DNA from: Bacilli bacterium
Lineage (GTDB): Bacteria; Bacillota_I; Bacilli_A; RFN20; CAG-631
Assembly: GCA_900754115.1 (NCBI GenBank)
Contig: CAAEBM010000052.1
Coordinates: forward strand, 10,716-74,715
Length of the DNA: 64,000 nt
Direction of reading: 5' to 3'
Shown here: positions 24,095-51,074 of the stretch, piece after piece
How positions within the stretch are numbered: the stretch's first letter is position 1
Layout of the letters: each line of letters begins with the position of its first letter
Translations under genes and position numbers: made by a program
The notes under the pieces: model-generated
What the model was told of the DNA's origin: nothing
Database searches by the model: none
Seen by the model: only the letters and a program-made list of their open reading frames with translations

Positions 24095-24350
24095 CTAAAA
24101 AATAAAAAAAGCATCCTTTTAGCTAAGGACGCTTGATGCGCGGTACCACCTTAGTTTATTTACAACTCATTTATTGTAAATACCCTCTTTTTCTTATTAA
24201 CGCTAAGAAACGATTGAACTACTGCTTTTCATTCAATATACTCCAAGACGACCTTCAAGTTCATTTCCTGTCATATTCCACCAATTTTTTGACTCTCTAT
24301 AAGGAAATAATACTTTACTCCTTCTTTTCTAAGTATATTCATATCATACA
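24095..24350 (-). promoter_or_regulatory. T-box riboswitch leader of valS
   Basis: Minus-strand sequence AACTAAGGTGGTACCGCGCATC matches the T-box consensus (AAnnnGGGUGGnACCGCG). It is followed by the terminator AGCGUCCUU-AGCUA-AAGGAUGCU plus a U8 run, then SD and ATG. Confidence 0.75.
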
Positions 24351-26991: not shown

Positions 26992-27459
26992 TTAAAATGT
27001 ATTTCTACCTTTAGCAAAGAAAACTGTAAATCCAGCCCAAAGAATTAAAATTAAGCTGACAAATAATCCTATTCCTGTTCCGTCTTTTACAGAAACATTA
27101 CCAAAATTATAATGAGATAATAACTCTTCAACTAAAGACAAATCAAAGAATATCCAACATAAAGCACCGATGGCAGCAACAGATAAGCCTACAACGACAT
27201 ACTTATACTTAAATTTTCCACCAACAGCAAAACAACCCGCTATAATCAATAATACCATTGGTAAAAAATATTGAACGACTTGTAAAAAACTTGCTCCAGT
27301 AAATCCACCTTTAATTAACATCGTAATAATGCTACAACTAAAGGTAAAATTTTCTATTGTTGCACTATAAACAGGCAAAAATAAATATAAAATAGCAGTA
27401 ATAAATAATACTGTTCCAGCAATACTAATTTTTCCACTTCTGCTAACCATAATGAACAC
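26992..27459 (-). CDS. integral membrane protein, hypothetical (4-5 TM)
   Basis: Hydrophobic 155-aa ORF with SD upstream. Confidence 0.5.
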   Translation of the reverse strand: MFIMVSRSGKISIAGTVLFITAILYLFLPVYSATIENFTFSCSIITMLIKGGFTGASFLQVVQYFLPMVLLIIAGCFAVGGKFKYKYVVVGLSVAAIGALCWIFFDLSLVEELLSHYNFGNVSVKDGTGIGLFVSLILILWAGFTVFFAKGRNTF

Positions 27460-27523: not shown

Positions 27524-27556
27524 ACAAAAAAAACAAGGCCGAATTTTCGACCTTGT
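27524..27556 (-). terminator. intrinsic terminator downstream of the giant lipoprotein gene
   Basis: Hairpin caaggucga-aaau-ucggccuug (9 bp including a G-U pair) followed by a U-run on the minus strand. Confidence 0.6.
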
Positions 27557-27577
27557 CTTCCTTCACTTAAAATTTGA

Positions 27578-30500
27578 TTAAGCTAGATAAGTAATCGTAA
27601 TTGTACAACCAATTACAGAACCACTAGTAAACTTCGCTGCAGAAAGTAATTTGAAGTAAGTAATTCCATCAGCAGCATCAAATTCAAAAGTCATTTGTAA
27701 ATCGTTTGTTAAAACACCATCTCTACAATCAGTTACATCCGTTACATCTGCTTGTGAGGTTGTTCCAACAGCTACTTTCATTGCATTAGAGAACTTATTA
27801 TTTCCAGTTGCAGTTGAAGTAATTTCAATCTTTGTAATTACACCTGGCATTGCTGTTGTATTGGCAAAATAGAAGTTATCAGCAACAGCTGTTTTGTTTC
27901 CTCTAATTTGTCCATTTGCCATGTAATTATTTGCTACGTAAGTTACCCCCCCTACTTCAGCAGTTTGTTCTGAAGTAGCATAACTAGTTCCAGCAAAATC
28001 AGCAAATCCTGTCATTGCAATGGCAGAAGTTTGAGGTGTTGGTTCTACAACTGTAACTTCTGTAACAGTTAACACGCCATCAGTAACGCTAAGTGTGAAA
28101 TCATCTTTAACAGCTAATAAACTAGCATAAACTGTATCTCTATTTGTATCACTAATAACAGTATCTTCGCCTAAGATGTAAGTTAAGAATTCGTTAATTG
28201 TAGCATCATGTGCAGCTAAAGCAAAACCTTCGCCAACAGTTGTTGCAGCATAAATGCCATAACTAACATTTGTAATTTTTCCACTTGCATCTACTGTAAT
28301 CAATGTTCTATAAGCATTTGCCATAGTTTTTCCAACTTCAAGGTTTTGACCTGTTGTCCAGTAAGACATCAAAGTTCCATAACCATCAAGCCCTACTGAA
28401 ATGTCAAATTTGCCTTCCGCTGCTACAGCAGTTTTAGAAATTGCTGAAATTGTTGTATTTTCAGTTAAAGTAAAACTATAAACATCGTCTCTAACAATTA
28501 AAACTCCATCTTTTAAGTATGAACTGACATCCACACCATCTTGTTGCCACTTAATGAAGTTTTCAACTGTATCAGCTTTTTTAACAGTGATTTCATCACC
28601 TGCTAATGTTTTAGTATCTTCAACATAAGCAATACCATTAATTGTTTCAATTACAGCACCTTCAAGAGTAATTGTTACTTCTTCAGGAGCAGAAGTGTCA
28701 ACTGCTTCCCAACTCTTATTTTCAATAACAACTACGCGATCTCTTAAATCATCAACGATAATTGTTCCATTTGCTTCGCGAATTGCATCTGCTGTCATGT
28801 TTGCTGATGCACTTTCTGTGTTTGCATGGTAAACGATACCAGATTGAATTGCACGAATTGTATTTCCAGTAATTCCTGCTAAGTCTTGGCTTTCTTCAGT
28901 ACCAAATACCCATAAAGAACCATTTAAAGTACAATTCTTAACAACAATAGCACCATTACCGCCTTGGAATCTTAATGCACCTTCACCACGAACACCTGCC
29001 ATACCTTCTTCTGTAACATTGATCGTTACATTTTCAAATGCGGTATGTGCATTTTCAGCTACATCTACGTGGCAAGTTGTTTGTATTGTTAAGTCTTTGA
29101 CTCCTTGTAAACTAGTAGAAATGTGTTGACTAGAAGTCAAGATTGTAGATTCTTGATTGACACCTTGTAAAACAATATTCTTTGTTAAATCAATACCAGT
29201 AATATCAATAGTTGTTGCACCGATTTTAACAATATCATTTTCTTCGGCTTTTGCAATCATATCAATTAAATCTGTTCTGTTTTTAGCAACTAGTTTAGAA
29301 ACAGTAAGTACACCATTTTCTACAACTAATTTATAATCAGCTTTTTCAGCTTCTAATTTAGCTAAAACAGTATCTTTGTTTGATTCATTTTCTAAAATCG
29401 TTTCTCCTAACATGTAGGATAACAATTCATTGAATGGAGTTAAATGACCAACAATTGCAAATCCTTCTTCAACAACTAAACGTTCAGTTGCTGGTAAGAC
29501 TGGAAGAATTTGTGTAATTGTTCCTTCTTCATTGACTAATAAAACCATACGGAATTGGTTAGCAACCTTTGTTCCGACTTTGATAGAGCTTCCAGCTGGC
29601 CAATAAGAATTCAAAGTGCCATAACCATCTAATTTTACAGAAACATCAAATGATCCACTTGCATATTCTTGTTTTGCTACAGCCTTAATTGTTGTTTCTC
29701 CTGCTTCTACAGTAAATGTATAAGCAGCATCTCTAACAATTAAAACTCCATCTTTTAAGTATGAACTGACATCCACACCATCTTGTTGCCATTTTACAAA
29801 TTCAATTCCTTCAGCTTTTTCAACAGTGACTACGTCACCTGCATAAATTTTAGTAACGCCTTCTTCATAAGGAACATCATCTACAGTTTTGATAACAGCA
29901 TTTTCAACATTAACTGTTGCTTCAACTGTATCAGGTTCATATTCTGTATCAAATTTAGCAGTTAAATTAGCCCCCGTTTTACTTAATCTAAAGGTATAAG
30001 CTTCTTCAGTAGATACAAGTTCATCCCATTCATTATACCAACCAGCAAATACTTTACCTTCTTGGTTATTAGCGAAAACAGTGACCAAAGAATTTGCTTC
30101 TAAAGTTGCTGTCGTTTCACCATTTACTGTTCCACCTACTAAAGTAACAGTAGCAGTAACATAAACAGGATCTACTTGTATATTTGTTCTATCTTGAACA
30201 CGAATATTTCCAGCTTCAGTTAAAGATAAATGCCATTTATCTAAAGAACCATCTGCCGTATTCGTTTCAAACAAAGCATTGTTTGTAGTAGGAATAGTGG
30301 TTTGACCAGTTATATGTTTTAATAAATTAACCATCGTTACATCAGTAGCAGATGCAGTAAATACAAATCCACCATCAGGAATAATGTAATCAAAATGGTT
30401 ATGATTGTCTTTTCCGGCTTGCCAAGGAGCCCAGTCATCTCCTACGTAGAAGATTGGGTTTTTAGTTCCTTCTTGACCAACTCTTGAATAGAAACCATCA

Positions 30501-33500
30501 CCTGGTCCACCATATCCGCCACCAAATCCAAAGGAAGCATATACAATATATCCATTAGCATCTACAGCGATAGTATATCCAGTAGTATCTTTAAAGAAAG
30601 TTTTACTTCCTTCTGGAGCCTTGCCATATGTGTTTGGACAATCGGCAGCAATTGTTCCAGAAACTTCATTATCTGTATAAATTGTAAATTCGCCTTTAGT
30701 TGGTGCTGCTTCAGGATTGATTAAATCATAAGCAAAACCTTGTTCAGTAATTGCAAATTTTGCAGTTAAAGTAATTGTTTCAGTAACTAAATAAGTATAC
30801 TCTTTATCTGTTGATAATAATTCTTCTCCATTGTACCATCCTAAGAAAGTTTGTCCTACAGGATTGTTTGCAACAATAGTTACATTCGTATTTTTATCAA
30901 CGATTTTTTGAGTAGTCGTTTCATCTTTAAAGGTTCCACCTTCAACTTTTACAAAAGCTTTATTTGAAGCAAGTCCAGCATTGACTGTAACTTCATAAGT
31001 TTCTCTGTCTAAAGTTAAGGTTGTATCATCAGATACTAAAGCATGTAAAGCTTGATCTCTATTAATTTGTTGTGCAGCTGCTGTTCTAGATGTCACAGTA
31101 GATAAATCAAAGGTTTGACCAAAGATTTGATCTAAGAAATCATTAGCTGCTTCACCTTTAGCAACTACAACGAATCCATCTTGTGGTACAACAAGTTGCC
31201 ACTTAGAATAGAAGCCCCATGAAAGTGCACTAGTTTCGTCAACAACTAAAGCTGGATTAACTCTATCAGTGCCAAATTCATGATTTGGAAGTTCATCTTC
31301 TTCGCGTGTACCATAAGCATAATAAGAGTTTCTATAATAAGAATCAGAATAAGCAGTTCCATGTCCTAATCTAGGAGCAAAAACTAAGTATGTAATTCTT
31401 CCTTCACTATCAACTGCAATGTATAATAGTTCAGCACTTGAGTCAGCTAAATATTTTTCTTGATTTTTATCTGCTGATTCAACAACTGCAGTTCTTGTGC
31501 TATCGATTCCAGAAGCAACTGCATTTTCTGCATCTTCAACGAAGACAGAATAAGTATCGCTATAAGGAGCAACATTTATTTGAGGAGTATCTTCCACTGG
31601 AGCATTGTCATCAACGACACAAATTTTTCCCATTTTTGTTAATGAGAATGTAAAGTGATCCCATACACCATTTGAAACAAGACCAGCACTCATTGCAGTT
31701 CCAAAAAGAAGATCATTATTTGTTGGAACAGGATTATCAACACTATAAGGAGTATCAACAATTCCCTTCATCAACATATTCATAATTGTGACTAAGCCTT
31801 CATCTGTTGGATCAGTTAAAGTAAAGACAAATCCACCTTCTGGAATGACACAATCATATTCATCAAAATGAGAATCAGGCCAAGGAGCAAATTCATCACT
31901 GACATAGAAGATTGGATTATTAACTCCTTCTTCTCCAACTCTAGAATAGAATTTATCGGCTGGAGAGCCATAACCTGCATTTAATCCATAAGAAGCATAA
32001 ACTAATTTTCCTTGAGCATTAACAGCGAAGGTGAATCCAGCAGCTTTTTGACCATCAGCAGCTTCAGGAGTAATAAATGTTCTTCTTCCTTCAGGAACAT
32101 TACCATACTTATTTTCACTTTCTGGAGCAATGGTTCCATTCAACCAATTATCTGTCCAAAGAGCAAAATCATTAGTTGCGCTTGATGGATTAATAACAGT
32201 TGGAGTAGCTTTTACATTCTTTTCATAATCAATAAGAATTTGATTATCAAATGTTAAATATAAACGAGTATATTCAGGAATGCCATTAGGATAATCAGCT
32301 TTAAAATGAGAGTAATTATAAACATCTCCACCTTGTGCTACTTTAGCTTCTAAAGAAGCATCATCCATAATTAATGCCAAGATTTTTCCCGTTGCAGATC
32401 CTTTCATTCCGATTAAAAATCCGCCTTCTGGAACAGCCCATTCCCACAAATTAGAATATTTGCTACCATCTTCTTGAGTCCATGGTTTCCAATTTGGAGA
32501 AACTGCAAAAGAAGGATTATCTTTATTTAATAAATCAGGATATTGGTTAAATCCATTAAATGTATTATCTGGTCCATTATAACTACCACCATAACCCAAC
32601 CAATAACTAAATCCAATAGCCAAAATTTTTCCTTCATCACTTACAGAAACAACACTAGTCCAAGATTCAAGAGAATTGAAAGTATATTTAGAACTATCGT
32701 ATTGACTAGTTTGAGGTAATTTACCATTAATTGCTTCATCAGTATAGATACCGATTTCATTACCATCATTAGCAGCAAAATTTTGATTCATTAAATCTGG
32801 AGTAATTGCACCTTCTACTGGATCAGGATTGAATTCTCTTTCAAATTTAGCAGTATAAGTAACATTATCTTTTAATTGGAAAGTGAAAGTTGATTCAGCA
32901 CTGATAAGTGTATCGCCACTATACCATCCAGAGAAAATGTATCCAGATTCTGGTTGGTTAGCAATAATTGTTACTTCTGTATCTACGTTTAATTCAACAG
33001 TTGTTCCTTCTTGACCATCAATTGTTCCATTAACAACTGTAATTGTAGCTTTATCAGAATATTCAGCAGTCCATGTTACATTGCCATTGACTGGAATTTC
33101 GTATTCTTTTGATGTAGCTACGCTATCTCCACTAACCCAACGAACAAAACGTTCTCCTGTTTTATCATCTGCAACAATTGTAACTTTGCTGCCTAAAGCA
33201 AAATCTTTTACGCTTTCATCAGTACCTTTAAATGTACCATTTACTAAAGTTATTGTCGCATAACCGGTGACATCGTTTAAAGAATTAGTTCTAAAGATAA
33301 CTTCTGTATTATTTTCAACTTGAAGTACACCTTTAATATCAAATTTATCATTCGGTTGAGCATCCGCATAAAGCGTAATATTTCTTCCTTTATAAACATT
33401 ACCTTCAGCATCATTGAAAGTTGAAATTTCTCCAGTAGTTCCAACATAAATTAATTCTTTCATTGTTACTATTTTGTTTTGATTTGCTACAACCCATTGT

Positions 33501-34693
33501 GTTGCATAATCAGTAATAACAATTGGATTTGGAGAAGTAACTGCCCAATATTTACTTAAAACTTCTGGTTCTTGTGTAGGTGTAATTGTGTTTTGTCCAG
33601 CAACAACACTAAATGTACCATCTACGCGAACTGTTTGTCCGATAGTATATGCTCTTTCAGCCTTTTCAGGAACGTATTGGAAAGTAGTATCTTTAACTAA
33701 TACAGAACCTGTTTCATCTGCAATAACTAATATACCATCATCATACATACTTGTAATGACACCACGTACTGTAACTGCAGTATCATTTTCTTTAGTAATC
33801 ACTTCAGCAATGTCATCAAATAAATCTACTGGAGCTTCTTCTGGTTCACATAAGTAAGCAGGAGTTTCATCTCCAGCATCTTCTCTTAACATTACTTCTA
33901 GTTGTTTATCTTCATTGATAAAAACATAAAAATCATCAAAATCACCTTTTGCAGTGTCAAGTTCTAATAATTTATTAGATTCTTGCATTGCAACTACTTC
34001 TTCTGAAGTATATGTGCTTTCAGGATAAAGGAAATTTAAAAATTGAACAAAACCATTTGCATCTTCCCCACGGCCAGTAATGATAAATCCGCCTTCGGGA
34101 ATAACATAATCGTAATGGCTCGCAGTGCCAGCTGGCCAAGCTTCCCAGTCTGCAGCAATAGCAAATACTGGAAAACTATCAGTACCTGCAGCAGTAGTCT
34201 TGTCCCATTGATAAGCAGGACGATAATAGAAACCATCACTTGGTCCACCATAACCTGCATTTGTTCCCCAGCTAGCATAAGCAATATAACCATTTGCATC
34301 AATAGCAAAATTCCAACGATAATTTCCTTCTGGATTCGTTGTTCTTCTATCTTCTGCTAAGCCTGAAACGTTAGCGCTTAATGGAGCAATAGTTCCATCA
34401 ACATAACGGTCTGTCCAAATTGACATTCCTTCTGTTGTTACGTGAGTATTGGTGTCCCAGTTAAATACGACATCCAATGCTAACGATGTAGGATCAGGAG
34501 GGATAGGTGTTGTACTACTGCTACTACTATCACTACCACCAGTAATAGGAGGATTAGTTGAAGTACCAGAGCTAGATGAATCTGGATTAGGTTTAGAAGA
34601 TGAAGAATCACCTTTTTTTGTACATCCAGTTAACACCAATGTTAACCCTGCCAAACTCCATAAAAGCGTTTTAAACAGCTTTTTAGAATTCAT
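27578..34693 (-). CDS. giant (2371-aa) cell-surface lipoprotein with repetitive architecture: Ser-rich linker, 5 copies of an unknown ~140-aa module, 4 Listeria-Bacteroides (Flg_new-type) repeats, a pectate-lyase-like beta-helix flanked by a duplicated 210-aa unit, and a C-terminal beta-rich domain
   Basis: Lipobox LTLVLTG-C at residues 17-24. Repeated motifs NAGYGGP.DGFY.R and V[IV]PEGGF. Listeria-Bacteroides-repeat-like VTIVANNPVGQTFLGWYNGEELLSTDKEYTY...LTAKF. WQQDGVDVSSYLKDGVLIVRD occurs twice. See findings. Confidence 0.9.
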   Translation of the reverse strand: MNSKKLFKTLLWSLAGLTLVLTGCTKKGDSSSSKPNPDSSSSGTSTNPPITGGSDSSSSSTTPIPPDPTSLALDVVFNWDTNTHVTTEGMSIWTDRYVDGTIAPLSANVSGLAEDRRTTNPEGNYRWNFAIDANGYIAYASWGTNAGYGGPSDGFYYRPAYQWDKTTAAGTDSFPVFAIAADWEAWPAGTASHYDYVIPEGGFIITGRGEDANGFVQFLNFLYPESTYTSEEVVAMQESNKLLELDTAKGDFDDFYVFINEDKQLEVMLREDAGDETPAYLCEPEEAPVDLFDDIAEVITKENDTAVTVRGVITSMYDDGILVIADETGSVLVKDTTFQYVPEKAERAYTIGQTVRVDGTFSVVAGQNTITPTQEPEVLSKYWAVTSPNPIVITDYATQWVVANQNKIVTMKELIYVGTTGEISTFNDAEGNVYKGRNITLYADAQPNDKFDIKGVLQVENNTEVIFRTNSLNDVTGYATITLVNGTFKGTDESVKDFALGSKVTIVADDKTGERFVRWVSGDSVATSKEYEIPVNGNVTWTAEYSDKATITVVNGTIDGQEGTTVELNVDTEVTIIANQPESGYIFSGWYSGDTLISAESTFTFQLKDNVTYTAKFEREFNPDPVEGAITPDLMNQNFAANDGNEIGIYTDEAINGKLPQTSQYDSSKYTFNSLESWTSVVSVSDEGKILAIGFSYWLGYGGSYNGPDNTFNGFNQYPDLLNKDNPSFAVSPNWKPWTQEDGSKYSNLWEWAVPEGGFLIGMKGSATGKILALIMDDASLEAKVAQGGDVYNYSHFKADYPNGIPEYTRLYLTFDNQILIDYEKNVKATPTVINPSSATNDFALWTDNWLNGTIAPESENKYGNVPEGRRTFITPEAADGQKAAGFTFAVNAQGKLVYASYGLNAGYGSPADKFYSRVGEEGVNNPIFYVSDEFAPWPDSHFDEYDCVIPEGGFVFTLTDPTDEGLVTIMNMLMKGIVDTPYSVDNPVPTNNDLLFGTAMSAGLVSNGVWDHFTFSLTKMGKICVVDDNAPVEDTPQINVAPYSDTYSVFVEDAENAVASGIDSTRTAVVESADKNQEKYLADSSAELLYIAVDSEGRITYLVFAPRLGHGTAYSDSYYRNSYYAYGTREEDELPNHEFGTDRVNPALVVDETSALSWGFYSKWQLVVPQDGFVVVAKGEAANDFLDQIFGQTFDLSTVTSRTAAAQQINRDQALHALVSDDTTLTLDRETYEVTVNAGLASNKAFVKVEGGTFKDETTTQKIVDKNTNVTIVANNPVGQTFLGWYNGEELLSTDKEYTYLVTETITLTAKFAITEQGFAYDLINPEAAPTKGEFTIYTDNEVSGTIAADCPNTYGKAPEGSKTFFKDTTGYTIAVDANGYIVYASFGFGGGYGGPGDGFYSRVGQEGTKNPIFYVGDDWAPWQAGKDNHNHFDYIIPDGGFVFTASATDVTMVNLLKHITGQTTIPTTNNALFETNTADGSLDKWHLSLTEAGNIRVQDRTNIQVDPVYVTATVTLVGGTVNGETTATLEANSLVTVFANNQEGKVFAGWYNEWDELVSTEEAYTFRLSKTGANLTAKFDTEYEPDTVEATVNVENAVIKTVDDVPYEEGVTKIYAGDVVTVEKAEGIEFVKWQQDGVDVSSYLKDGVLIVRDAAYTFTVEAGETTIKAVAKQEYASGSFDVSVKLDGYGTLNSYWPAGSSIKVGTKVANQFRMVLLVNEEGTITQILPVLPATERLVVEEGFAIVGHLTPFNELLSYMLGETILENESNKDTVLAKLEAEKADYKLVVENGVLTVSKLVAKNRTDLIDMIAKAEENDIVKIGATTIDITGIDLTKNIVLQGVNQESTILTSSQHISTSLQGVKDLTIQTTCHVDVAENAHTAFENVTINVTEEGMAGVRGEGALRFQGGNGAIVVKNCTLNGSLWVFGTEESQDLAGITGNTIRAIQSGIVYHANTESASANMTADAIREANGTIIVDDLRDRVVVIENKSWEAVDTSAPEEVTITLEGAVIETINGIAYVEDTKTLAGDEITVKKADTVENFIKWQQDGVDVSSYLKDGVLIVRDDVYSFTLTENTTISAISKTAVAAEGKFDISVGLDGYGTLMSYWTTGQNLEVGKTMANAYRTLITVDASGKITNVSYGIYAATTVGEGFALAAHDATINEFLTYILGEDTVISDTNRDTVYASLLAVKDDFTLSVTDGVLTVTEVTVVEPTPQTSAIAMTGFADFAGTSYATSEQTAEVGGVTYVANNYMANGQIRGNKTAVADNFYFANTTAMPGVITKIEITSTATGNNKFSNAMKVAVGTTSQADVTDVTDCRDGVLTNDLQMTFEFDAADGITYFKLLSAAKFTSGSVIGCTITITYLA
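28057..28687 (-). repeat. second copy (A') of the duplicated ~210-aa unit inside the giant gene (residues ~2003-2212)
   Basis: About 50% amino-acid identity to unit A, including the exact 21-aa match WQQDGVDVSSYLKDGVLIVRD and a ~60-nt identical DNA stretch (28489..28550 versus 29732..29793). Confidence 0.8.
29293..29926 (-). repeat. first copy (A) of the duplicated ~210-aa unit (residues ~1590-1800)
   Basis: See copy A'. The two units are 1.26 kb apart, separated by the beta-helix-encoding segment. Confidence 0.8.
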
Positions 34694-34804
34694 ATATTTT
34701 TCCCCTTTCTTTAAAATATGGATTCAATATCCATTTTGATTATAATACTTATATTTTAAAAAAGCAAGGCAAAAAATGGTAACGCTTTCATTTTTTTAAA
34801 ACAA

Positions 34805-34836
34805 AAAAACAAAGCGTTCGGCAAGAGCGCTTTGTT
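34805..34836 (-). terminator. intrinsic terminator after rpoC
   Basis: Minus strand CAAAGCGCUCUUGCCGAACGCUUUG, followed by UUUUUUUGUUUU. Confidence 0.6.
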
Positions 34837-34845
34837 TTAGACATT

Positions 34846-37800
34846 TTAAACAATTGATTGTTCGACTGTTTCCTCATTTTCTTCAGAAAGCAAGGCTTTT
34901 TCTTGCTCTTTTTTAGCTACTTCAGGACAAGGAATAAGTTTACCAACAATAACATTTTCTTTTAATCCTGTCAAATGATCCACTTTTCCTTTAACAGCCG
35001 CATCCGTTAAAACACGGGTTGTTTCTTGGAAAGAAGCAGCAGACAAGAAAGATTCAGTTTCTAAAGAAGCTTTTGTGATGCTCAAAATAATTTGTTTTGC
35101 GACTGCAGGGCGGCCATGATGAATCAAAGTATCACGATTAATACGTGTAAATTCATGCATATCGATTTTACTTCCTGGTAATAAATCAGTATCTCCGCCA
35201 TCTAAAACAATTAATTTGCGTAACATTTGACGAATCATCACTTCAATATGTTTATCACCAATAGGAATACCGGTTAAGCGATAAACTTTTTGAACTTCTT
35301 TTAAGATATATTTTTGAACTTCAACGCTATCTGCTACTTCAAGTAATTGTTTTGGATTAATCGGTCCTTCTGTAATTTTTTGACCATTTTTAACTTCATC
35401 GCCAACTTGTACACGAATTCTTGCTCCAAAAGGTATGACATATTCTTCTGAATCTAAATCATTTTTAATGGTAACAACTGTTTTTTCGCCATCTTTGAAA
35501 TCTTTTGTTTCAATGCTTTGAACTGTACCAGCAGTCTTTGAAATAATCGCTTCTCCACGAGGAGGACGTGTTTCAAACAATTCTTGAACCCGAGGTAAAC
35601 CTTGAGTAATGTCTGAACTTCCCGTAACTCCACCGGTATGGAAAGTTCTCATGGTTAATTGCGTTCCTGGTTCCCCAATAGATTGAGCAGCCATTGTTCC
35701 AATCGCTTCTCCAACTTCTACTTCTTTTCCAGTTGCTAAATTTAAACCATAACACTTTCTGCACACACCATTATGAGTTTTACAACCAAATAAAGAACGA
35801 ATTTTAATTTTCTTATATCCTGCTTGAATAATTTTATCTGCAGTTTCTTCACTAATTAAACTATCTTTATCCACGATTAATTCTTTGGTTTCTGGATGAT
35901 AGATATTATTTAGTGGGTAACGACCGACTAAACGATCTTTGAAAGGAACGACAATTGAATCATTTTTCGTGTCTTTGATTTCTTCAACTTCAAATCCAAT
36001 ATCGGTATGGCAATCATCTTCACGGACAATGACATCATGAGCCACATCGACTAAACGTCTAGTTAAATATCCAGATTCTGCTGTCTTTAAAGCAGTATCG
36101 GACATGGTTTTTCTAGCACCATGGGTAGAAATAAAGAATTCAGATACGGTTAAACCTTCACGGAAAGAAGATTTAATCGGTAATTCAATTGCTCTTTCAG
36201 TTGAAATAGACATTTGATTTAATTGAGAAATTTCAGCAGAAGTTAATTTTCCACCTGTTTGAGTTAATTTCTTAATTAAATCTTTATGTGCATCTCTTGA
36301 AGAGGGTTTAAATGGTTTAGACATTAATCCTCTCATTCCGGCAAGTTGCGTAAAGTTTGAAGCATTTCCTCTAGCACCAGAATCAGACATCATAAAGAAT
36401 GGATTTCGATTGTTTTGTTTTAATTGTTTTGCCAAAGAGGTTTCAACTTCACTTTTTACTTTTTCCCAAACTTTAACGACTTTATTATGTCTTTCATCAT
36501 CCGTTAATAAACCTTTATTATAGAATTTAACAATTTGTTCGACTTGTTTATCTCCATCAGCGATAATATCGTATTTTCCTTCGGCTACTTTAATATCATC
36601 AATAGAAACAGTAACACCAGAAACTGTCGCATATTTAAATCCTTGATCTTTCATTTTATCAAGCATAACGGAAGTTTCTTCAGTACCATAGTGTTTAAAC
36701 ACATAGTCGATGATTTTTCCTAAATCTCCCTTTTTAAAAGGTGGATTTAGTTCACTAGTGGCGATGATTTCTTTGATATTTCCACCACGAGGAACAAAAT
36801 ATTTTTCAGGGATTTTTTCAAATCCATCTTTAGGACTATTTAAATAAACAAGTGTTTTTGGATAAATGCTATTAAAGATAATTTTACCAACGGTTGTAAT
36901 TAAATATTGATTTTTTTGCTCTTCAGTAAAACATTCTTTATCTAAAGAGGAAGCTAAAATCGCAATCCGTGTTTGTAAATGAATATTTCCTGTTTGATAA
37001 GCTAAAATCGCTTCATCTGGATTTGCAAAAACTTTTCCTTCACAATCTCCATATAATTCGTATTTTTCTGCATTCATTTCATCGCCATCTTCACGATATT
37101 TTGCAGCACGTTGATAAAAATCATTTTTGGTCCATTCTAGCGTAATATAATAATTTCCAAGCACCATGTCATGACCTGGAGTAACAATTGGTTTTCCATC
37201 TTTTGGTCCTAAAATATTTTTTGAACCAATCATTAGTTCACGGGCTTCATGAATAGCATCTTTTGATAAAGGAACATGGACAGCCATTTGGTCTCCATCA
37301 AAGTCAGCATTAAATGCTGGACAAACTAATGGATGCAAACGAATTGCTCTTCCATCAACTAATTTCACTTCAAAAGCTTGAATTCCTAAACGGTGTAACG
37401 TTGGTGCACGGTTTAATAATACAGGATGATCTTTAATAATGTTATCTAAAGCATCCCATACTCTTTCATCTTGACGATCAATTAATCGTTCGGCTTGTTT
37501 ATGAGAAGTGACTTGTCCTTCAGCAATCATTTTTGCAGCAATGAAAGGTTTAAATAATTGAACAGCCATTTCTCTTGGAATACCACATTGATACATCTTT
37601 AAATCAGGTCCGACAACAATAACACTACGTCCTGAATAATCGACTCTTTTTCCAAGTAAGTTTTGACGGAAACGACCTTGTTTTCCTTTTAAAGTATTGG
37701 ATAAAGATTTTAATGCTCTTCCACCAGCGCCTAAAACTGGTTTGCTACGACGACCATTGTCAATTAAAGCATCAACGGCTTCTTGTAACATTCTTTTTTC

Positions 37801-38787
37801 ATTGATTAAAATGACTCCAGGAGCATTAATTTCTTTTAATCTTTTTAGACGAATATTTCGGGTGATAACACGACGATATAAATCATTTAAATCACTTGTT
37901 GCAAAACGTCCTCCATCTAATTGTAACATCGGTCTTAAATCAGGTGGAATGACGGGAACAACCGTTAAAACCATCCATTCTGGACGATTATTTGATTTTC
38001 TAAAAGATTCGACAACGTCAAGTCTTTTTAATAATTTTTGTCTTTTTAATTTTTGACTTTGTGTTTCTTTTAGTTCTGTTTTAATTTCTTCAAGAATTTT
38101 ATCTAAATCAACTTGTTCTAATAAAGTTTTAATGGCTTCTGCCCCCATACCAAATTCAGCACCTGTGTGTTGCGTGATAAAGGTAGCATAAGTATAAAAA
38201 TCAAATTCTTTTGAATTTTCCAAACGATTAATAATATCCGTACCACGAATATATTCTGCATCATCTTCAGAAAATCTTGAAATAATTTCTTTTACTACAG
38301 CCACAAATTTAATTCTAGCTTCTTTTTCTCCTAAAACTTCTCCTTTGTATAATAAAGAAGTAGTTCCAGGATTTAAAACAATTCTAGAAACAAAGTAGAC
38401 GACATCTTCTAATTGCTTAGCAGAAATATCTAAAATTAAAGCAATTCGACTAGGAGTTCCTCTTAAATACCAAATATGAGCCACTGGACTTGCTAATTCA
38501 ATATGTCCCATTCTTTCACGACGAACTGCTTTTGTAGTCACTTCTACTCCGCATTTTTCACATTTAATGCCTTGGAAACGAATCTTTTTATATTTTCCAC
38601 AATGACATTCATAATCTTTTGACGGACCAAAAATTCTTTCACAAAACAAACCATCCAATTCTGGCTTTTGAGACCGATAATTAATGGTTTCTGGTTTTGT
38701 CACTTCTCCATATGACCATTCTAAGATTTTTTCTGGAGAAGCCAAGCCAATTTGAATAGCAGAAAGTTTATTGATATCAATGGCCAT
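34846..38787 (-). CDS. rpoC: DNA-directed RNA polymerase subunit beta'
   Basis: [14 protein letters not shown] catalytic motif. Zn-binding [23 protein letters not shown]. 1313 aa. The ATG overlaps the rpoB stop (TAATG). Confidence 0.97.
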
Positions 38788-41700
38788 TAAAATTCACCTC
38801 CGTCATCAAGATTTGCTGAGATATTTAATCCACTCGCTTCTAAATCTTCAGAAAGGGTTTCAAATGTCGGATATTTATCTCGACTTTGTGCTTCTTTCAT
38901 AATATCTTTGGTTTCCATGATATTTCCTTGATCATCAAGTAAATTGACATCAATAGCCAAAGATTGCAATTCTTTTTGTAAGACTCTAAACGATTCAGGA
39001 ATTCCAGGATTAGGAATTTCTTTTCCTTTTAAGATTGCTTCATAAGCTTTCACACGTCCCACTACATCATCGGATTTAATAGTCAATATTTCTTGTAAAG
39101 TATGTGCAGCTCCATAAGCTTCTAAAGCCCATACTTCCATTTCACCAAAACGTTGACCACCATTTTGAGCTTTACCTCCAAGAGGTTGTTGTGTGACAAG
39201 TGAATAAGGACCTGTCGCACGAGCATGTAATTTATCGTCAACCATGTGTGATAGTTTAATCATATACATGACTCCGACAGAAACTTTTTCATCATATTTT
39301 TCACCGGTTTTTCCATCATAAAGAACTGTTTTTCCATCTTTTGACATACCGGCTTTATTCATCAAATCGAGCAATTCTTCATTTGAAATTCCATCAAATG
39401 AAGAAGTAGCTACTTTCATTCCTAAAGTTTTAGCAGCCATTCCTAAATGAAGTTCCAACACTTGTCCAATGTTCATTCGGCTTGGAACCCCTAAAGGATT
39501 AAGCATAATATCTACTGGTGTGCCATCTGGTAAAAAGGGCATATCTTCTTCAGGCATGATTCGTGAAATGACCCCTTTATTTCCATGACGTCCAGCCATT
39601 TTATCTCCTTCAGAAATTTTCCGTTTTTGAGCGATATAAACTCTAACGATTTGATTAACACCAGGAGCTAAATCCACTCCTCCTGTCTTCCGATTGAATA
39701 CTTTTACACCGACAACAATTCCTTCTCCACCGTGAGGAACGCGTAAAGAATTATCTTTTCCTTCTTTTGTGCGATCGCCAAAGATAGACATTAATAGTTT
39801 TTCTTCAGGAGTGGGTTCAGTTTGTCCTTTTGGTGTAATTTTTCCAACTAAAATATCGCCTTCTTTAACTTCTGAACCAGGAATAACAATTCCAAGTTCA
39901 TCTAAGTGAGCCTTTGCTTCTTCTGAAACATTGGGCACATCCCGTGTAATTTCTTCTGGACCTAATTTTGTTTCACGACATTCTGTATCGTAATCTTCAA
40001 TATGAATAGAAGTATATACATCATCTTTAACTAAACGTTGAGACATGATGACTGCATCTTCATAGTTATATCCATGCCAGGTCATAAATGCAACGACAAC
40101 ATTTTGTCCTAAAGCTAACTCTCCTTGTTCCATAGAAGGTCCATCGGCTAAAATTTCACCCTTTGCTACTTGTTGGCCCACTTTAACAATCGGGTTTTGG
40201 TTAAAACAAGTACCCGCATTAGAACGAGCAAATTTATATAATGTATAGGTACGTGGTCCTTCTTTTTCATCCACAATAATTTTTTTAGAATCGACATAAC
40301 GTACAATTCCATCTTCTTTTGCAACTACAGCAACACCAGAGTCATGTGCACTAATGTATTCAATACCTGTACCAACAATAGGTGCACTAGGACGTAAAAG
40401 AGGAATGGCTTGCCGTTGCATGTTTGCACCCATCATTGCCCGGTTTGCATCATCGTTTTCAATAAATGGAATTAATGCTGTCGGAATCGAAATGATTTGT
40501 TTAGGTGAAACATCGACATAATCGACATTTTCTTTATCCGCTAAGATATCTTCTCCACGGAAACGAGCGATAATTTTATCTTGTAAAATTTCGCCATCTT
40601 TTCCTAATTGAATGTTTGCTTGACCAATGACAAATTCGTTTTCTTCATCAGCTGATAAATAATCACATAATTCATCTTTTACAAAATGCTTTCCATTTTC
40701 GTGAACTACTTTACGGAAAGGAGTTTCAATAAATCCATATTCGTTAATTTTAGCATGACTTGCTAAATTATTAATTAATCCAATATTTGGTCCTTCTGGC
40801 GTTTCAATTGGACAAATTCGACCATAATGGGAATAGTGAACATCCCGCACTTCAAAACTAGCGCGATCACGCGAAATTCCACCAGGTCCTAATGCAGACA
40901 AACGACGTTTATTGGTAAGTTCTGCAATTGGATTGGTTTGATCCATGAATTGAGAAAGTTGTGAAGAAGAATAAAATTCTTTAATCGCAGCCGTTAACGG
41001 TCTAATGTTAATGAGATTGGTCGGTGTCATCGATTCTGTATCTGTAATGGACATTCTTTCACGAACAGAACGTTCCATTCTAGAAAGACCAATTCTGAAT
41101 TGATTTTGTAACAATTCACCAACAGCACGTACCCGACGATTACCTAAATGGTCAATGTCATCAACATCGCCAATATTATCGGCTAAATTGAGTAAATAAG
41201 AAAAAGTAGCATAAATATCAGGAACGGTAATATGCTTGTTTTTTAAATTCAAGTCTGTCCCCATGATTTGTACAACTTTTGACTTTGTTTCATCTGGGTA
41301 AACTTTGACAATATTCACTTGATTATAAGGTCCAAAATCCGTATTTACTTTTACTTCATAAGCATGGGCTCCTTTTTCAAAAAGTTCCATGTTCATGATG
41401 TTTTTGACTCTTTCTTTAGTCATATGAGTGCCTTTTTCATAAATGACTTCCCCATTGACATCGACTAAATTTTCAGCCAAATAACAATCTAAAATACGAT
41501 TATAAACACTTAATTTGCTTTTTAATTTAAAGCGTCCTGCCACGCCTAAATCATAACGTCTTTTATCAAAAAACTTTTGAAATAATAACGTTTTAGGTCC
41601 TTCTTCTGTAGCAGGTTCACCTGGTCTTAATTTAGAATGAATTTCAACCAATGCTTCACGAATGGTAGAAGCATGATCTTTTTCAAATGTATTTACAAGC

Positions 41701-42389
41701 AAAGGATTATTACCAAACAAATCACAGATATCTTCATTTGTTGGTAAACCGATTGCTCTTAACAATACAGTAGCAGGCATTTTCCGAGTACGATCAACAC
41801 GCACTTGAATTTGATCTTTGATATCACTTTCAAATTCAAGCCAAGTTCCTCTTGCTGGAATTAAGTCTGCACCATAAAGTAATTTTCCATTTTTAGTGTC
41901 CACATTCTTTTTAAAATAAGCGCCTGGAGAACGAACAAGTTGCGAAACAATAACCCGTTCAGCACCATTGATGACAAAGGTACCAGTATCTGTCATCATT
42001 GGGAAATCTCCCATATAGACTTCAGATTCTTTAATTTCTCCTGTAGTCATGTTATTTAATCGCAATAATGCGCGTAGTGGACGAGAATAAGTTAGATCTC
42101 GATTCTTACAATCAACTTCGCTGAATTTTGGTTCATCAAAACGGCATGATAAAAATTCAAGGGTTAAATCGCCTTTACTACTAGCTATTGGAAAGACATC
42201 TTGGAAAACTTCTCCAATTCCTTTTTTTAAGAACCAATCAAAAGATGATGTTTGAATTTCAATCAAATTTGGAAGGGCTAATGAACCACTAATTTTAGAG
42301 TAATTAACTCTATTTTTAGAATACTTTTGTTTTTCAAAAGTTGTTTTTATCACTTTTGTGTCACCCCTTGTTTTATTATTCGGATTCAC
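38787..42389 (-). CDS. rpoB: DNA-directed RNA polymerase subunit beta
   Basis: [19 protein letters not shown]-terminal signature. 1200 aa as given in the track. The true start is more likely the GTG at 42351-42353, which has AAGGGGTGA 8 nt upstream and removes a 14-nt overlap with the upstream gene. Confidence 0.95.
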
Positions 42390-43962: not shown

Positions 43963-44108
43963 TCTTGCACCTCCTGTTTAATTTATTAAACAATACGCAC
44001 TAAAAATTTATAGAAAATTCATTGAATTTAAAAACTTTTGTATTTTCACCTCGGCAACAAATTAAGCTTGTTAGCAGTTGCTTTCTAGGGCGTATTGAAC
44101 AACCAAAA
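43963..44108 (-). promoter_or_regulatory. probable L10 (rplJL) leader RNA region
   Basis: 146-nt untranslated spacer between rplA and rplJ, where Firmicutes carry the L10 leader autoregulatory structure. Assigned by position only. Confidence 0.35.
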
Positions 44109-49289: not shown

Positions 49290-51062
49290 TTATTTTTTAG
49301 GAAATGGTGTTCGCGCATGATAGGTAGTATGTAATAATTCATGTGCAAGATGACTATTTGGTTCTTTTAAGTAATTTTGGTATAAATCTTGCACTTGTTT
49401 ATTTAAATGAGAGCGACGAATGACTTGCTTTTCATCTTCAGAATATAAAGCCGAAGCTCTTTTTTGAATGTAGGTATTTAAAATATCTGCATCTTCATTA
49501 GGTAAGAAACAAGGTTTAACGAAAGGTTGTCCTCCACCATTTACACATCCACCAGGGCAACCCATGATTTCAATAAAATGATATTTGGATTCTTTTTTAC
49601 GAATTTGGTCCAATAATGGTTTAGCGTTTTTCATGCCATGCGCTACTGCAATATTGATTTTTAAACCATTAATATCTAATTGAGCTTCTTTAATACCTTC
49701 TAATCCTCTAACAGGTGTAAAATGTAACAAATCTTCTGCCTCTTGGTTTGTAAGCATATGGTAAGCCGTTCTTACAGCTGCTTCCATTACTCCACCTGTC
49801 ACACCAAATATGACACCAGCTCCACTATATTCTCCTAATAAATCTTGATCAAATTCTTCTTCTGGTAAGCGATTGAATTGAATCCCACTTCTTTTGATTA
49901 AAACGGCTAATTCTCGAGTGGTCAAAACAGCATCGACATCTTGTATTCCATTTACAGCATTTTCCTTCCGTTCTTTTTCATATTTTTTGGCAGTACAAGG
50001 CATAATGGAAACGACAAAAATATCTTTTGGATCTAATTGATGTTTTTGTGCATAATAAGACTTAATAATTGCACCAAGCATTTCATGAGGAGACTTACAA
50101 CTGGATAAGTGATCTAATAAATCCCCATAGAAATATTCAGCATAATTTACCCAACCTGGAGAACAAGATGTAATCATTGGTAAAACTCCTTGGTTTTGTA
50201 TGCGATGAATTAATTCGGATGCTTCTTCCATAATGGTTAAATCAGCACCAAAATTCGTATCATAAACTTTTTCAAAACCTAAGCGATGTAAAGCGGCAAC
50301 CATTTTTCCTGTAACAGCTGTTCCAATTGGCAAACCAAACTCTTCACCAAGGGCAGCTCTTACTGCTGGAGCAGTTTGTACAATGACATGCTTTCCTTGA
50401 CGAAAAGCTTCATCAACGAGGTCAATTTCTCCCTTTTCCATTAAAGCACCTGTTGGACAAACATTCACACATTGTCCACATAAAATACAAGGAGAGTTTT
50501 TAAAAGAACGATTATAAGCAGGGCCAACAATCGTTTTAAATCCCCGATTTTCAAAGCCTAAAATGCCAGTACCATGTGCTTCGATACAACGAGTAACACA
50601 TCTTCCACATAAAATACATTTGGAAGTATCGCGAATAATAGAAGGAGTCAATTCATCATAAGTAACTGGTGTTTGTTCACCTAAATAAACATTATCTCTT
50701 GCTCCTGTAATGGTTGCAACATGTAATAACTCACATTTCCCATTCTTTTTACATTGTTGGCAATTTTTAGAGTGATTAGATAAAATTAATTCTACACTTG
50801 TACGACGAGCTTGAACCGCTTTTGGACTAGAGATGATAATTTCCATTCCTTCATTGACAGGATAAACACAAGAAGCGACAAGACCTCTTGCACCTTTTAC
50901 TTCAACTAAACAAACGCGGCATGAACCTTGAGAGCATTTTCCATCATTAAAAGCGCATAGAGTAGGAATTTCATAGCCACATTCTTGTGCTGCTTTTAAA
51001 ATCGTCAATCCTTTTTTTACTTGATAAGGATGTCCTTCAATTTTAATATTTACATATTCCAT
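49290..51062 (-). CDS. hydA: [FeFe]-hydrogenase catalytic subunit (HydA/HndD-type, with N-terminal 2Fe-2S and 4Fe-4S ferredoxin domains)
   Basis: H-cluster motifs L1 TSCSPGW, L2 MPCTAKKYE and L3 EIMGCPGGCVNGGGQP. 590 aa. Confidence 0.9.
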   Translation of the reverse strand: MEYVNIKIEGHPYQVKKGLTILKAAQECGYEIPTLCAFNDGKCSQGSCRVCLVEVKGARGLVASCVYPVNEGMEIIISSPKAVQARRTSVELILSNHSKNCQQCKKNGKCELLHVATITGARDNVYLGEQTPVTYDELTPSIIRDTSKCILCGRCVTRCIEAHGTGILGFENRGFKTIVGPAYNRSFKNSPCILCGQCVNVCPTGALMEKGEIDLVDEAFRQGKHVIVQTAPAVRAALGEEFGLPIGTAVTGKMVAALHRLGFEKVYDTNFGADLTIMEEASELIHRIQNQGVLPMITSCSPGWVNYAEYFYGDLLDHLSSCKSPHEMLGAIIKSYYAQKHQLDPKDIFVVSIMPCTAKKYEKERKENAVNGIQDVDAVLTTRELAVLIKRSGIQFNRLPEEEFDQDLLGEYSGAGVIFGVTGGVMEAAVRTAYHMLTNQEAEDLLHFTPVRGLEGIKEAQLDINGLKINIAVAHGMKNAKPLLDQIRKKESKYHFIEIMGCPGGCVNGGGQPFVKPCFLPNEDADILNTYIQKRASALYSEDEKQVIRRSHLNKQVQDLYQNYLKEPNSHLAHELLHTTYHARTPFPKK

Positions 51063-51074
51063 GATTCCATCCTC

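Follow-up and report, generated by a model that had tools for sequence, protein, structure and literature searches.

The open reading frame at positions 27578..34693 (ATG start, stop codon included) is a genuine gene, and it encodes a protein of 2371 aa. The window, that is the whole 64-kb stretch of DNA that was analysed, carries rpoB (38787..42389) and rpoC (34846..38787) upstream of it on the same strand, with a gap of 152 nt between rpoC and the gene; all the features described here lie on the minus strand. On balance, our analysis favours a monocistronic gene for a giant acidic cell-surface lipoprotein, which would act as an abundant, multivalent and non-catalytic binding or coat protein. 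The computed mass of the mature protein is 254.6 kDa and its computed pI is 4.26. A protein search found 60 homologues, every one of them without a name. From the N-terminus onwards, with M for a ~200-aa module and B for a B-repeat, the domains run M1, beta region 285-478, B1, B2, M2, M3, M4, B3, M5 and B4, followed by a B'-M' unit, a beta-helix, a second B'-M' unit and a C-terminal beta-sandwich. Searches of Pfam and NCBIfam with the whole protein and with each region gave B-repeat matches only, and no catalytic family.

The lipobox signal peptide claimed in the original prediction can be read directly at the N-terminus. In the sequence MNSKKLFKTLLWSLAGLTLVLTG|C, an n-region rich in K leads into a hydrophobic core, and the lipobox is L-T-G-C24; a positively charged n-region, an h-region and an [LVI][ASTVI][GAS]C lipobox are all present within the first ~35 residues. 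The signal peptide spans aa 1-23 (34625..34693) and is cut at LTG|C, which makes Cys24 the predicted lipidated N-terminus. The leader MNSKKLL...LTGC recurs in many family members. It is followed by a Ser/Thr/Pro-rich linker of 42 residues (aa 24-65, 34499..34624), the Ser/Pro linker that had been noticed earlier. The protein is acidic and devoid of an LPXTG-like motif, as had been stated, and the search for a sortase anchor found neither an LP.[TSA][GNA] motif nor a C-terminal hydrophobic segment. There is no second hydrophobic segment beyond the signal peptide in the 2371-aa protein, and the Pfam and NCBIfam scans gave no SLH, CWB2, GW, LysM or other wall or S-layer anchoring domain. From the lipobox and the established course of lipoprotein biogenesis, it could be expected that Sec exports the protein, Lgt adds diacylglycerol to Cys24 and LspA removes the signal peptide; the ORFs scanned in the window included neither lgt nor lspA. 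The lipid would then tether the mature 254-kDa chain to the membrane, with the Ser/Thr/Pro linker pointing outward.

A module of ~200 aa occurs in five copies, as supported by fragment self-BLAST (E down to 1e-29) and by an HMM built from the copies. Copy 1 covers aa 66-284 (33842..34498), copies 2, 3 and 4 stand in tandem in aa 623-1240 (30974..32827; assigned to aa 623-830, 831-1028 and 1029-1240, with envelopes 623-837, 829-1031 and 1028-1240), and copy 5 covers aa 1316-1512 (30158..30748; envelope 1316-1515). The original prediction had counted five copies of a ~140-aa module; the number is right, while the ~140 aa correspond only to the conserved core of a longer domain. It had also taken the module for a sugar-binding beta-sandwich, and here the model of copy 5 speaks otherwise, as it shows a mixed alpha/beta domain of ~200 aa with a confident fold (pLDDT 84). 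The near-invariant motifs of the module, rich in Gly, Pro, Asp and Arg, are GYGxPxDGFYxR, NPxF and VIPEGGF; such motifs could equally mark an active site. That the module belongs to no named family, as suspected, agrees with the searches: Pfam was blank at E<=10, NCBIfam was blank, and PDB sequences gave nothing significant, also with profiles built from 15- and 29-sequence alignments of the module. The module is rare: of 1.84 billion cluster representatives, 189 matched it at E<=1e-3.

In a survey of 130 family members, most had a lipobox at the N-terminus and an S/T/P linker behind it. Another set (19 of 79 members scanned) consists of HTH_3-module proteins with an N-terminal Xre HTH, and those inspected have an acidic coiled-coil C-terminus and no detected membrane segment. 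The module occurs almost only in lipoproteins, plus this HTH-module-coiled-coil subfamily. Since it is fused to an Xre HTH in proteins without a detectable membrane segment, the module is not exclusively extracellular, and the fusions argue for a ligand-binding or sensor role. Its further partners, namely Flg_new, collagen, BspA LRR and CBM26, are of the binding type. Ligand sensing or binding appears a better guess for the module than the glycan processing that had been put forward; an enzymatic activity of the module finds no support. The genomic context of two HTH-module regulators gave no hint of the ligand.

The remaining parts of the protein are a mixture of known and undescribed elements. 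Pfam PF18998 (Flg_new_2) matched four stretches, with a score of 68.9 bits where its gathering threshold is 23.6, and TIGR02543 of NCBIfam reached 21.0 against 20.95. Together with self-BLAST, the PF18998 matches place InlB-type B-repeats 1 and 2 at aa 479-546 and 549-620 (32834..33259), B-repeat 3 at aa 1246-1313 (30755..30958) and B-repeat 4 at aa 1514-1585 (29939..30154), and these are the four Listeria-Bacteroides-type repeats recognised earlier. Self-comparison also recovered the duplicated ~210-aa unit of the original prediction, the two copies of which, at aa 1588-1800 (29294..29932) and aa 2002-2212 (28058..28690; model pLDDT 80-95), share 46-57% identity. In hhalign comparisons the N-terminal half of the unit matched the B-repeats with a probability of 97.8% (E 1e-12), and the C-terminal half matched the module with a probability of 79% (E 1.6e-5, 114 columns). 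Each unit is probably a divergent B-repeat joined to a reduced, loop-deleted module, and counted in this way the protein has 5+2 modules and 4+2 B-repeats. The region at aa 285-478 (33260..33841) is beta-rich and possibly OB-fold-like, given a weak match to Pfam BOF (E 0.021); it holds a dense run of invariant columns across 14 aligned homologues and has no match in PDB sequences.

Between the two units, the AlphaFold model suggests a short right-handed parallel beta-helix segment at aa 1801-2001 (28691..29293), of low confidence (pLDDT mostly 43-80). Residues 1796-2010 matched no Pfam family at E<=10, PbH1 and Beta_helix included, and no PDB sequence. This low-confidence model had a generic likeness to adhesin-type and lyase-like beta-helices. 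The beta-helix that had been proposed between the duplicated units is therefore supported by the model, but not strongly and not by a sequence match. The segment is wholly absent from homologues of 48% identity. The beta-rich C-terminal domain foreseen in the original prediction was modelled as all-beta (aa 2213-2371, 27581..28057; pLDDT 72-89), and it may be weakly discoidin/CBM-like. Foldseek gave weak matches to F5/8C, CBM32, CBM27 and lectinolysin, none of them at or below E 1e-3 (E 0.02-0.07 for the first three), with a probability of 0.9-0.99 and a TM to target of 0.33-0.47 over ~110-170 columns. The Foldseek output carries no query ranges, and we infer that these matches belong to the C-terminal domain of the model. 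No sequence match to this domain was found in Pfam or PDB, and the corresponding domain of the relative P0055 has only 21% identity.

Terminators had been predicted on both sides of the gene, and both are present. The intrinsic terminator of rpoC lies at 34799..34838, with a hairpin at 34806..34838 that folds at -13.6 kcal/mol and stands ahead of a T-run, and the gene has its own intrinsic terminator at 27526..27561 (-19.1 kcal/mol, followed by a T8 run). A consensus terminator scanner missed both hairpins, though they are plain in the sequence. A hairpin and T-run were found in the spacer between rpoC and the lipoprotein gene in all five related loci examined. Alignment of six loci located a promoter at 34739..34767, with a -35 box TTGCTT (34762..34767), a 17-nt spacer and a -10 box TATAAT (34739..34744). 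The -10 box is invariant in the six loci, and the -35 box is TTGAC in L004, L007 and L008. Just 3' of the -10 box there is a palindrome, ATGGAT-N5-ATCCAT (34718..34734; fold -5.3 kcal/mol). Its GGA...TCC is invariant in the six loci, and L007 and L008 carry a paired change from GGAT/ATCC to GGAA/TTCC. The palindrome is probably the 5'-terminal stem-loop of the mRNA; the hairpin is weak, and it could be a protein operator instead. The Shine-Dalgarno sequence AAAGGGGA (34701..34708) follows, and AAAGGRG is kept in related loci. Upstream of the promoter lies a tentative cre-like box, TGAAAGCGTTACCA (34777..34790), which agrees with the consensus TGWAANCGNTNWCA at 13 of 14 positions; L006 and L002 have it in the corresponding position, and L004 carries it without any mismatch. 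The box was set aside as lacking statistical support in the window, where the pattern has 7 matches against 5.7 expected by chance.

The CAI of the gene, calculated against a small reference set of genes from the window, is 0.718; no other non-reference gene there scores as high, and the value lies among those of the ribosomal and glycolytic genes of the set. The gene has a promoter and a terminator of its own; in the favoured reading it is monocistronic and probably highly expressed. High expression is indicated by the consensus-like promoter, the 5' hairpin, the strong Shine-Dalgarno sequence and a codon usage like that of ribosomal-protein genes.

The placement of such a gene behind rpoBC was earlier considered unusual; it is not peculiar to this genome, as the same locus is conserved in lineages with 71-80% RpoC identity. 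The order of rpoC and then the lipoprotein gene was found in the window and in L001, L002, L006, L004/L005 and L007, and in L008 the product of the gene upstream of the lipoprotein is related to RpoC (73.5% identity). The adjacency holds even where the downstream flank differs: in L007 rpsL-rpsG-fusA-tuf follow the lipoprotein gene directly, and in L004 two small ORFs come before rpsL-rpsG. One family member, P0107 (L009), sits elsewhere, away from rpoC. Conservation of the locus suggests that the position right after rpoC is ancestral to a clade of family or order level. No relevant literature was found on a lipoprotein downstream of rpoC.

Identity in BLAST local alignments of the lipoprotein is 26-31%, while that of RpoC is >70%, and alignments of homologues show gain, loss and replacement of domains between relatives. 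The check on conservation across related genomes that had been recommended thus gave a locus that is kept and a gene that differs by whole domains, the modules of which fall in no well-known family. The view that the gene is hypervariable and positively selected has to be toned down. Against L006 its dN/dS is 0.275, no single domain exceeds 0.66, and the neighbouring acyl-ACP thioesterase gene, which is of housekeeping type, has 0.257, which means that fast evolution is not specific to the lipoprotein gene. The dS of the lipoprotein gene matches that of the adjacent genes, and this together with the dN/dS of 0.275 was counted for selection and vertical descent. An origin from a mobile element was rejected, as tblastn of the whole protein had no match in phage or plasmid collections. 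A wall-less host of the Mollicute type was likewise rejected; the window holds LD-carboxypeptidase, GerM- and YetF-type genes, and these peptidoglycan-related and spore-related genes indicate a walled host.

It could be argued that the protein is a surface-anchored glycan-processing enzyme, with the beta-helix (as a lyase or hydrolase) or a NAGPA/DUF2233-related module as the catalyst and with the B-repeats and C-terminal domain for targeting. The module carries conserved Gly-rich loops (GYGGP, PEGGF), and the stretch of Slr0280 (5h3k) that was touched by the first, 15-sequence module profile is assigned to NAGPA by Pfam (E 3e-8). But the match to Slr0280 had an E of only 0.18 and was gone with the broader, 29-sequence profile, and homology of the module to NAGPA at the sequence level was rejected on this account. 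With PF09992 (NAGPA/DUF2233) there was no match at E<=10, whether for the five copies or for three further members of the family. DGGGS is the invariant sugar-phosphate loop of the NAGPA/DUF2233 phosphodiester glycosidases (PMC13474241), and it was not found in the consensus or the conserved columns of the module, where [VI]PEGGF comes nearest. The literature held nothing relevant on Slr0280. Even with the cut-off relaxed to E<=10, no region matched an enzyme family in Pfam, NCBIfam or PDB sequences. The beta-helix, for its part, is missing from the 48%-identity homologues and is equally like the non-catalytic adhesin helices of EtpA, 4wa0 and Cthe_2159, and a module fused to an HTH occupies the usual position of a sensor, not of a hydrolase. 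An enzymatic activity of the lipoprotein is not supported, and we consider this explanation quite unlikely.

A structural coat is still unlikely but deserves slightly more credit. Here, the protein would form a very abundant S-layer-like layer for protection or spacing, tethered by lipid in place of SLH or cell-wall-binding domains. Its very large size and pI of 4.26, the strong and conserved promoter, 5' stem-loop and Shine-Dalgarno sequence, the CAI level with ribosomal and glycolytic genes and the single conserved locus per genome beside the core expression machinery would all suit a coat. The mRNAs of S-layer genes are stabilised, and the set of promoter, 5' stem-loop and Shine-Dalgarno sequence seen here may resemble theirs. 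On the other hand, SLH, CWB2 and other S-layer domains were not found in Pfam or NCBIfam, an array of independent beads is atypical of lattice-forming proteins, and domain gain, loss and replacement are more in keeping with a repertoire of binding functions than with a lattice. Least probable of all is a functional linkage to rpoC, by which read-through of the terminator would co-transcribe the gene with rpoBC and make the surface protein track the growth rate. The short same-strand gap and an adjacency kept down to 71% RpoC identity despite a differing downstream flank would agree with it; against it, a terminator-like hairpin and T-run follow rpoC in every locus examined, a separate consensus-like promoter stands before each lipoprotein gene, and P0107 sits elsewhere. 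Vertical inheritance of an old insertion accounts for the adjacency without functional coupling.

The reading of an abundant multivalent binding or coat lipoprotein is thus the one we carry forward, and the function proposed with it is drawn from architecture and analogy. The host would be a walled, anaerobic, low-GC Firmicute of gut type, encountered in metagenomes only. In such a cell the lipoprotein could serve as an adhesin or as a scaffold for the capture of glycans or other ligands, laid out as a beads-on-a-string array, and the M module would be its ligand-binding element and, in the Xre-type regulators without a detectable membrane segment, would act as the sensor. The conserved locus, promoter, 5' stem-loop, Shine-Dalgarno sequence and codon usage suggest high surface abundance, with few surface components of the cell likely to be more abundant. 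It is conceivable, though doubtful, that the module of ~200 aa represents a new family of ligand-binding domains that one clade of uncultured Firmicutes uses in two ways, multimerised on a lipid-anchored scaffold as the dominant, highly expressed surface layer encoded at the rpoC-rpsL junction, and as a single-copy sensor in Xre regulators, with a shared ligand. If true, the same ligand (e.g. a fragment of a glycan from host or diet) would be captured on the outside of the cell and sensed within it.

In uncultured gut Firmicutes, large surface proteins decide on attachment and on how the cell presents itself to phages and immune systems, and most such proteins are unannotated. The module, being compact, undescribed, modelled at pLDDT 84 and present both on the surface and in regulators, is well suited to ligand screens and structural work. 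The address after rpoC could help to locate the corresponding major surface protein in metagenome-assembled genomes of relatives, even where its sequence has diverged too far to be recognised, and the signals of high expression make the protein a plausible dominant antigen or metaproteomic marker of the clade. If it is an ordinary adhesin, annotation would be the sole gain.

Among known systems, giant Gram-positive adhesins of the LPXTG-anchored Ebh, SasG and Mub types are likewise very large, acidic and modular and show gain and loss of domains. The protein described here differs from them in lacking a sortase signal and in having a different and mostly undescribed set of domains. A lipid anchor is shared with the large surface lipoproteins of Mollicutes; unlike those, the protein here is encoded near peptidoglycan- and spore-related genes in the window. 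The right-handed parallel beta-helices of Cthe_2159 (4phb), the Caldicellulosiruptor adhesin domain (4wa0), EtpA (8vba) and pectate lyases were also compared; the segment here has a low-confidence model, no PbH1 or Beta_helix match in Pfam and no identified catalytic signature, and is dispensable in related proteins. To the F5/8 type C discoidin domain, CBM32, CBM27 and the lectin domain of lectinolysin there are weak fold matches only and no sequence similarity. Slr0280 of Synechocystis (5h3k) and BPSS2145 of Burkholderia pseudomallei (6ozd) are uncharacterised exported proteins, the former with NAGPA/DUF2233; under half of the module aligns to them, and the HMM similarity is lost with the broader profile. 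In Slr0280, moreover, the two matched motifs stand in a different order than in the module, and the module has no DGGGS. The B-repeats (PF18998, PF09479 Flg_new), four bona fide and two divergent, are shared with the InlB/BspA-like surface proteins, and in both cases they would be spacer or binding beads of a large extracellular protein. Unlike the InlB-type proteins, the present one has no LRR cap, GW or LPXTG and is held by a lipid anchor, and the B-repeats make up a minor share of its mass, the bulk of which is the unnamed module.

The gene under study (27578..34693, minus strand; 2371 aa) lies directly 3' of rpoC, and the N-terminus of its product, MNSKKLFKTLLWSLAGLTLVLTG followed by C, has the classic features of a lipoprotein signal, including the lipobox LTGC. 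A Ser/Thr/Pro-rich stretch follows the lipobox and extends to about residue 65. The mature protein has a mass of 254.6 kDa and a pI of 4.26, and no LPXTG-like motif or second hydrophobic segment was found in it. The original prediction of a lipoprotein signal peptide on an acidic protein without LPXTG thus stands. The five proposed copies of one module were established by fragment-versus-whole self-BLAST and by an HMM built from the copies, at residues 66-284, 623-837, 829-1031, 1028-1240 and 1316-1515 (HMM envelopes), with pairwise identities to copy 5 of 21-45%. The module had been put at ~140 aa, which describes a conserved core, but the full domain is ~200 aa long and includes two helices and a terminal beta-hairpin. 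The four repeats described as Listeria-Bacteroides-type are InlB-type B-repeats (PF18998; score 68.9 bits, cut-off 23.6). This was the only Pfam family above threshold in the lipoprotein, and the NCBIfam scan added TIGR02543 only. The duplicated 210-aa unit is also real (residues 1588-1800 and 2002-2212), and it is composite. Its N-terminal ~90 aa constitute a diverged B-repeat into which 10 residues are inserted (hhalign probability 97.8%, E 1e-12). Its C-terminal ~115 aa, which do not have the GYGGP...NPxF...PW loop region, match the module end to end (hhalign probability 79%, E 1.6e-5, 114 columns), and weak reciprocal HMM matches agree with this. With M for module copies, B for B-repeats and B'M' for the duplicated unit, the order along the protein is signal peptide, linker, M1, X (285-478), B1, B2, M2, M3, M4, B3, M5, B4, B'M', predicted beta-helix, B'M' and C-terminal domain. 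Region X contains many alignment columns that are invariant across homologues. It had no match among PDB sequences, its sole match was a weak one to an OB-fold (BOF, E 0.021), and it is possibly OB-like.

A word-indexed search found 60 homologues of the lipoprotein, none of which is named in any source. Most of them are 68-74% identical to it and ~2650 aa long, with an additional OB-like and Big_2 insertion ahead of the C-terminal domain, and three at 47-48% identity lack the predicted beta-helix and carry three or four duplicated units as against two. Per-domain identities show whole-domain mosaicism among the homologues: identity in M2 falls to 42% in one sub-lineage, and the C-terminal domain of the homologue P0055 is only 21% identical. 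The module itself is rare and biased towards lipoproteins. An exhaustive profile search of 1.84 billion representatives yielded 189 at E<=1e-3, of which 93 reached E<=1e-10, and in most of the 130 of these 189 that were surveyed a lipobox and an S/T/P-rich linker come first, followed by 1-7 modules. In six of the lipoproteins (P0129, P0144, P0156, P0165, P0167 and P0168) the lipobox is directly followed by a His/Trp-rich motif, approximately HEHTYxTEWSxDxxxHWHxxT, which looks like a small metal-binding domain. Among the 79 shorter members, 19 have an N-terminal Xre HTH_3 domain joined directly to the module. An acidic coiled coil forms the C-terminus of the ones inspected, in which no membrane segment could be detected. 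This subfamily comprises P0176, P0186, P0207, P0222 and about 15 others, of 300-370 aa with one module each. In these proteins the module seems to be the sensor domain of a transcription factor, and the neighbourhoods of two of the genes gave no hint of the ligand. Further partner domains of the module are Flg_new, collagen repeats, metallophosphoesterase, BspA-type LRR, CBM26 and RsgI_M. A tblastn search of phage and plasmid collections with the whole lipoprotein gave no match.

The window has a G+C content of ~30%, and nearly all genes surrounding the lipoprotein gene are on the minus strand. Upstream on this strand are rpoC (34846..38787), rpoB (38787..42389) and the L7/L12 and methyltransferase genes; downstream are the genes for a 155-aa protein (26992..27459, minus strand), an acyl-ACP thioesterase, an rRNA methylase, Ham1 and SurE, and valS. 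Rfam matched only two leaders in the window, a T-box upstream of valS (24122..24340, minus strand; 124.7 bits) and a ribosomal protein L10 leader upstream of rplJ (43992..44108, minus strand; 46.3 bits). The window also encodes SecDF, MutS2, UvrC and an uncharacterised ORF of 667 aa (304..2307, plus strand) to which no Pfam family was assigned at E<=1e-5. Two neighbouring genes (49290..52940, minus strand), for the large subunit of an [FeFe] hydrogenase and for a Nuo51/NuoF-like flavoprotein, resemble the electron-bifurcating HydABC type, which indicates an anaerobic fermenter. A GerM (Germane) domain protein (2391..3407, minus strand), an LD-carboxypeptidase (7900..8928, plus strand) and a YetF/DUF421 protein (16737..17372, minus strand) have peptidoglycan- and spore-related functions, and these rule out a Mollicute. 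The host is thus an anaerobic Firmicute with a cell wall and possibly the capacity for sporulation.

The position after rpoC is conserved well beyond close relatives. In all of these (loci L001, L002 and L006) the lipoprotein gene directly follows rpoC. The order is rpoC, lipoprotein, two small ORFs, rpsL and rpsG for the homologue P0085 (L004/L005), and rpoB, rpoC, lipoprotein, rpsL, rpsG, fusA and tuf for P0088 (L007). Upstream of P0091 (L008) is a gene of 1396 aa, cut by the contig end, whose product is 73.5% identical to the RpoC of the window; one family member, P0107 (L009), is located elsewhere. Identities to the window for RpoC and the lipoprotein (the latter from the best BLAST local alignment) are 96.6% and 72.6% in L006, 89.7% and 48.2% in L002, 79.6% and 25.7% in L004, 73.5% and 30.8% in L008, and 71.3% and 27.9% in L007; thus the address is old and stable and the protein diverges fast. 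RpoC is 1462 aa in L007 (1424..5812) and at least 1396 aa in L008 (3..4193), as against 1313 aa in the window; BLAST offsets place the excess in the N-terminal part, which indicates a lineage-specific insertion. Against L006, dS is alike for rpoC, the lipoprotein gene and the downstream genes (0.70-0.91), indicating common vertical descent. In the same comparison dN/dS is 0.038 in rpoC, as against 0.275 in the lipoprotein gene, no domain of which exceeds 0.66; the adjoining thioesterase gene has 0.257, so the relaxation is not peculiar to the lipoprotein gene. The 155-aa protein, encoded immediately downstream of the lipoprotein gene, has four predicted membrane spans, no Pfam family and a dN/dS against L006 of 0.05, i.e. 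strong purifying selection. Its counterpart of 152 aa is kept downstream in L001, L002 and L006, and the distant loci L004 and L007 do not have the gene; its product may act together with the lipoprotein or have nothing to do with it.

Its position invites the explanation that the lipoprotein gene is functionally co-transcribed with rpoBC, and specific evidence speaks against this. The rpoC-lipoprotein spacer has a layout common to six loci and opens with a terminator hairpin, in the window at 34806..34838 (minus strand; -13.6 kcal/mol, then a T-run). The lipoprotein gene has its own hairpin with T8 (27526..27561, minus strand; -19.1 kcal/mol); a promoter/terminator scanner picked up neither terminator, and both are evident from the sequence. 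The promoter region is conserved: TATAAT is invariant in the six loci, the -35 is TTGAC in the distant loci and a weaker TTGCTT in the window, and the Shine-Dalgarno AAAGGRG is conserved. Just after the -10 lies an inverted repeat, ATGGAT-N5-ATCCAT (34718..34734, minus strand; -5.3 kcal/mol), found at aligned positions in L002, L004, L006, L007 and L008 and altered by one pair on both sides to GGAA...TTCC in L007 and L008. In Firmicutes a 5'-terminal stem-loop can stabilise mRNAs, and the repeat could be such an element or else the operator of a regulator that binds as a dimer. A cre-like (CcpA-type) box, TGAAAGCGTTACCA (34777..34790, minus strand), precedes the -35 by about 10 nt; it is kept at the same position in the window, L006, L002 and L004, and the L004 copy is the perfect consensus TGTAAACGCTTTCA; within the window the pattern is not above chance (7 found, 5.7 expected). 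Against a reference set made up of the window's ribosomal-protein and glycolytic genes, the lipoprotein gene has a CAI of 0.718, first among 40 non-reference genes and within the reference range of 0.66-0.87. Taken together, these signals suggest that the gene is expressed strongly and from a transcript of its own.

It could also be argued that the protein is a glycan-processing enzyme. The first module profile reached Slr0280 weakly by sequence (E 0.18), in a stretch that is Pfam NAGPA (E 3e-8). However, no module copy matched NAGPA even at E<=10, Slr0280 was no longer matched by a broader 29-sequence profile, and the DGGGS loop, invariant in phosphodiester glycosidases (PMC13474241), was not seen in the module consensus. 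The resemblance is therefore read as partial similarity of fold rather than membership of NAGPA. The structure of copy 5, predicted from a module-copy alignment of 15 rows, is a mixed alpha/beta domain (pLDDT 84.3, pTM 0.86), and the lipoprotein has no recognisable catalytic family. The model of residues 1790-2371 (mean pLDDT 69.8) contains a well-modelled second duplicated unit (pLDDT 80-95) and an all-beta domain in the C-terminal 150 aa (pLDDT 72-89). Foldseek of the model against the PDB gave nothing at E<=1e-3 and weak matches (E 0.02-0.07) to discoidin, CBM32, CBM27 and lectin jelly rolls; the output has no query ranges, and these matches are attributed by size to the predicted C-terminal domain. 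A mainly structural, S-layer-like coat likewise has specific evidence against it; all three rival readings, this one, the enzyme and co-transcription, are possible but less probable. We infer that the lipoprotein is surface-exposed and highly abundant, and that it serves in multivalent binding or as a coat, with the module as the ligand-binding unit.

At the level of mechanism the lipoprotein holds no surprise, and since giant modular surface proteins are already common in Firmicute genomes it is of a known kind. What is new is an undescribed domain family, confidently folding as modelled, that makes up most of the protein; the use of this module both by surface lipoproteins and by Xre regulators in which no membrane segment can be detected; and the address after rpoC, conserved across a deep clade.
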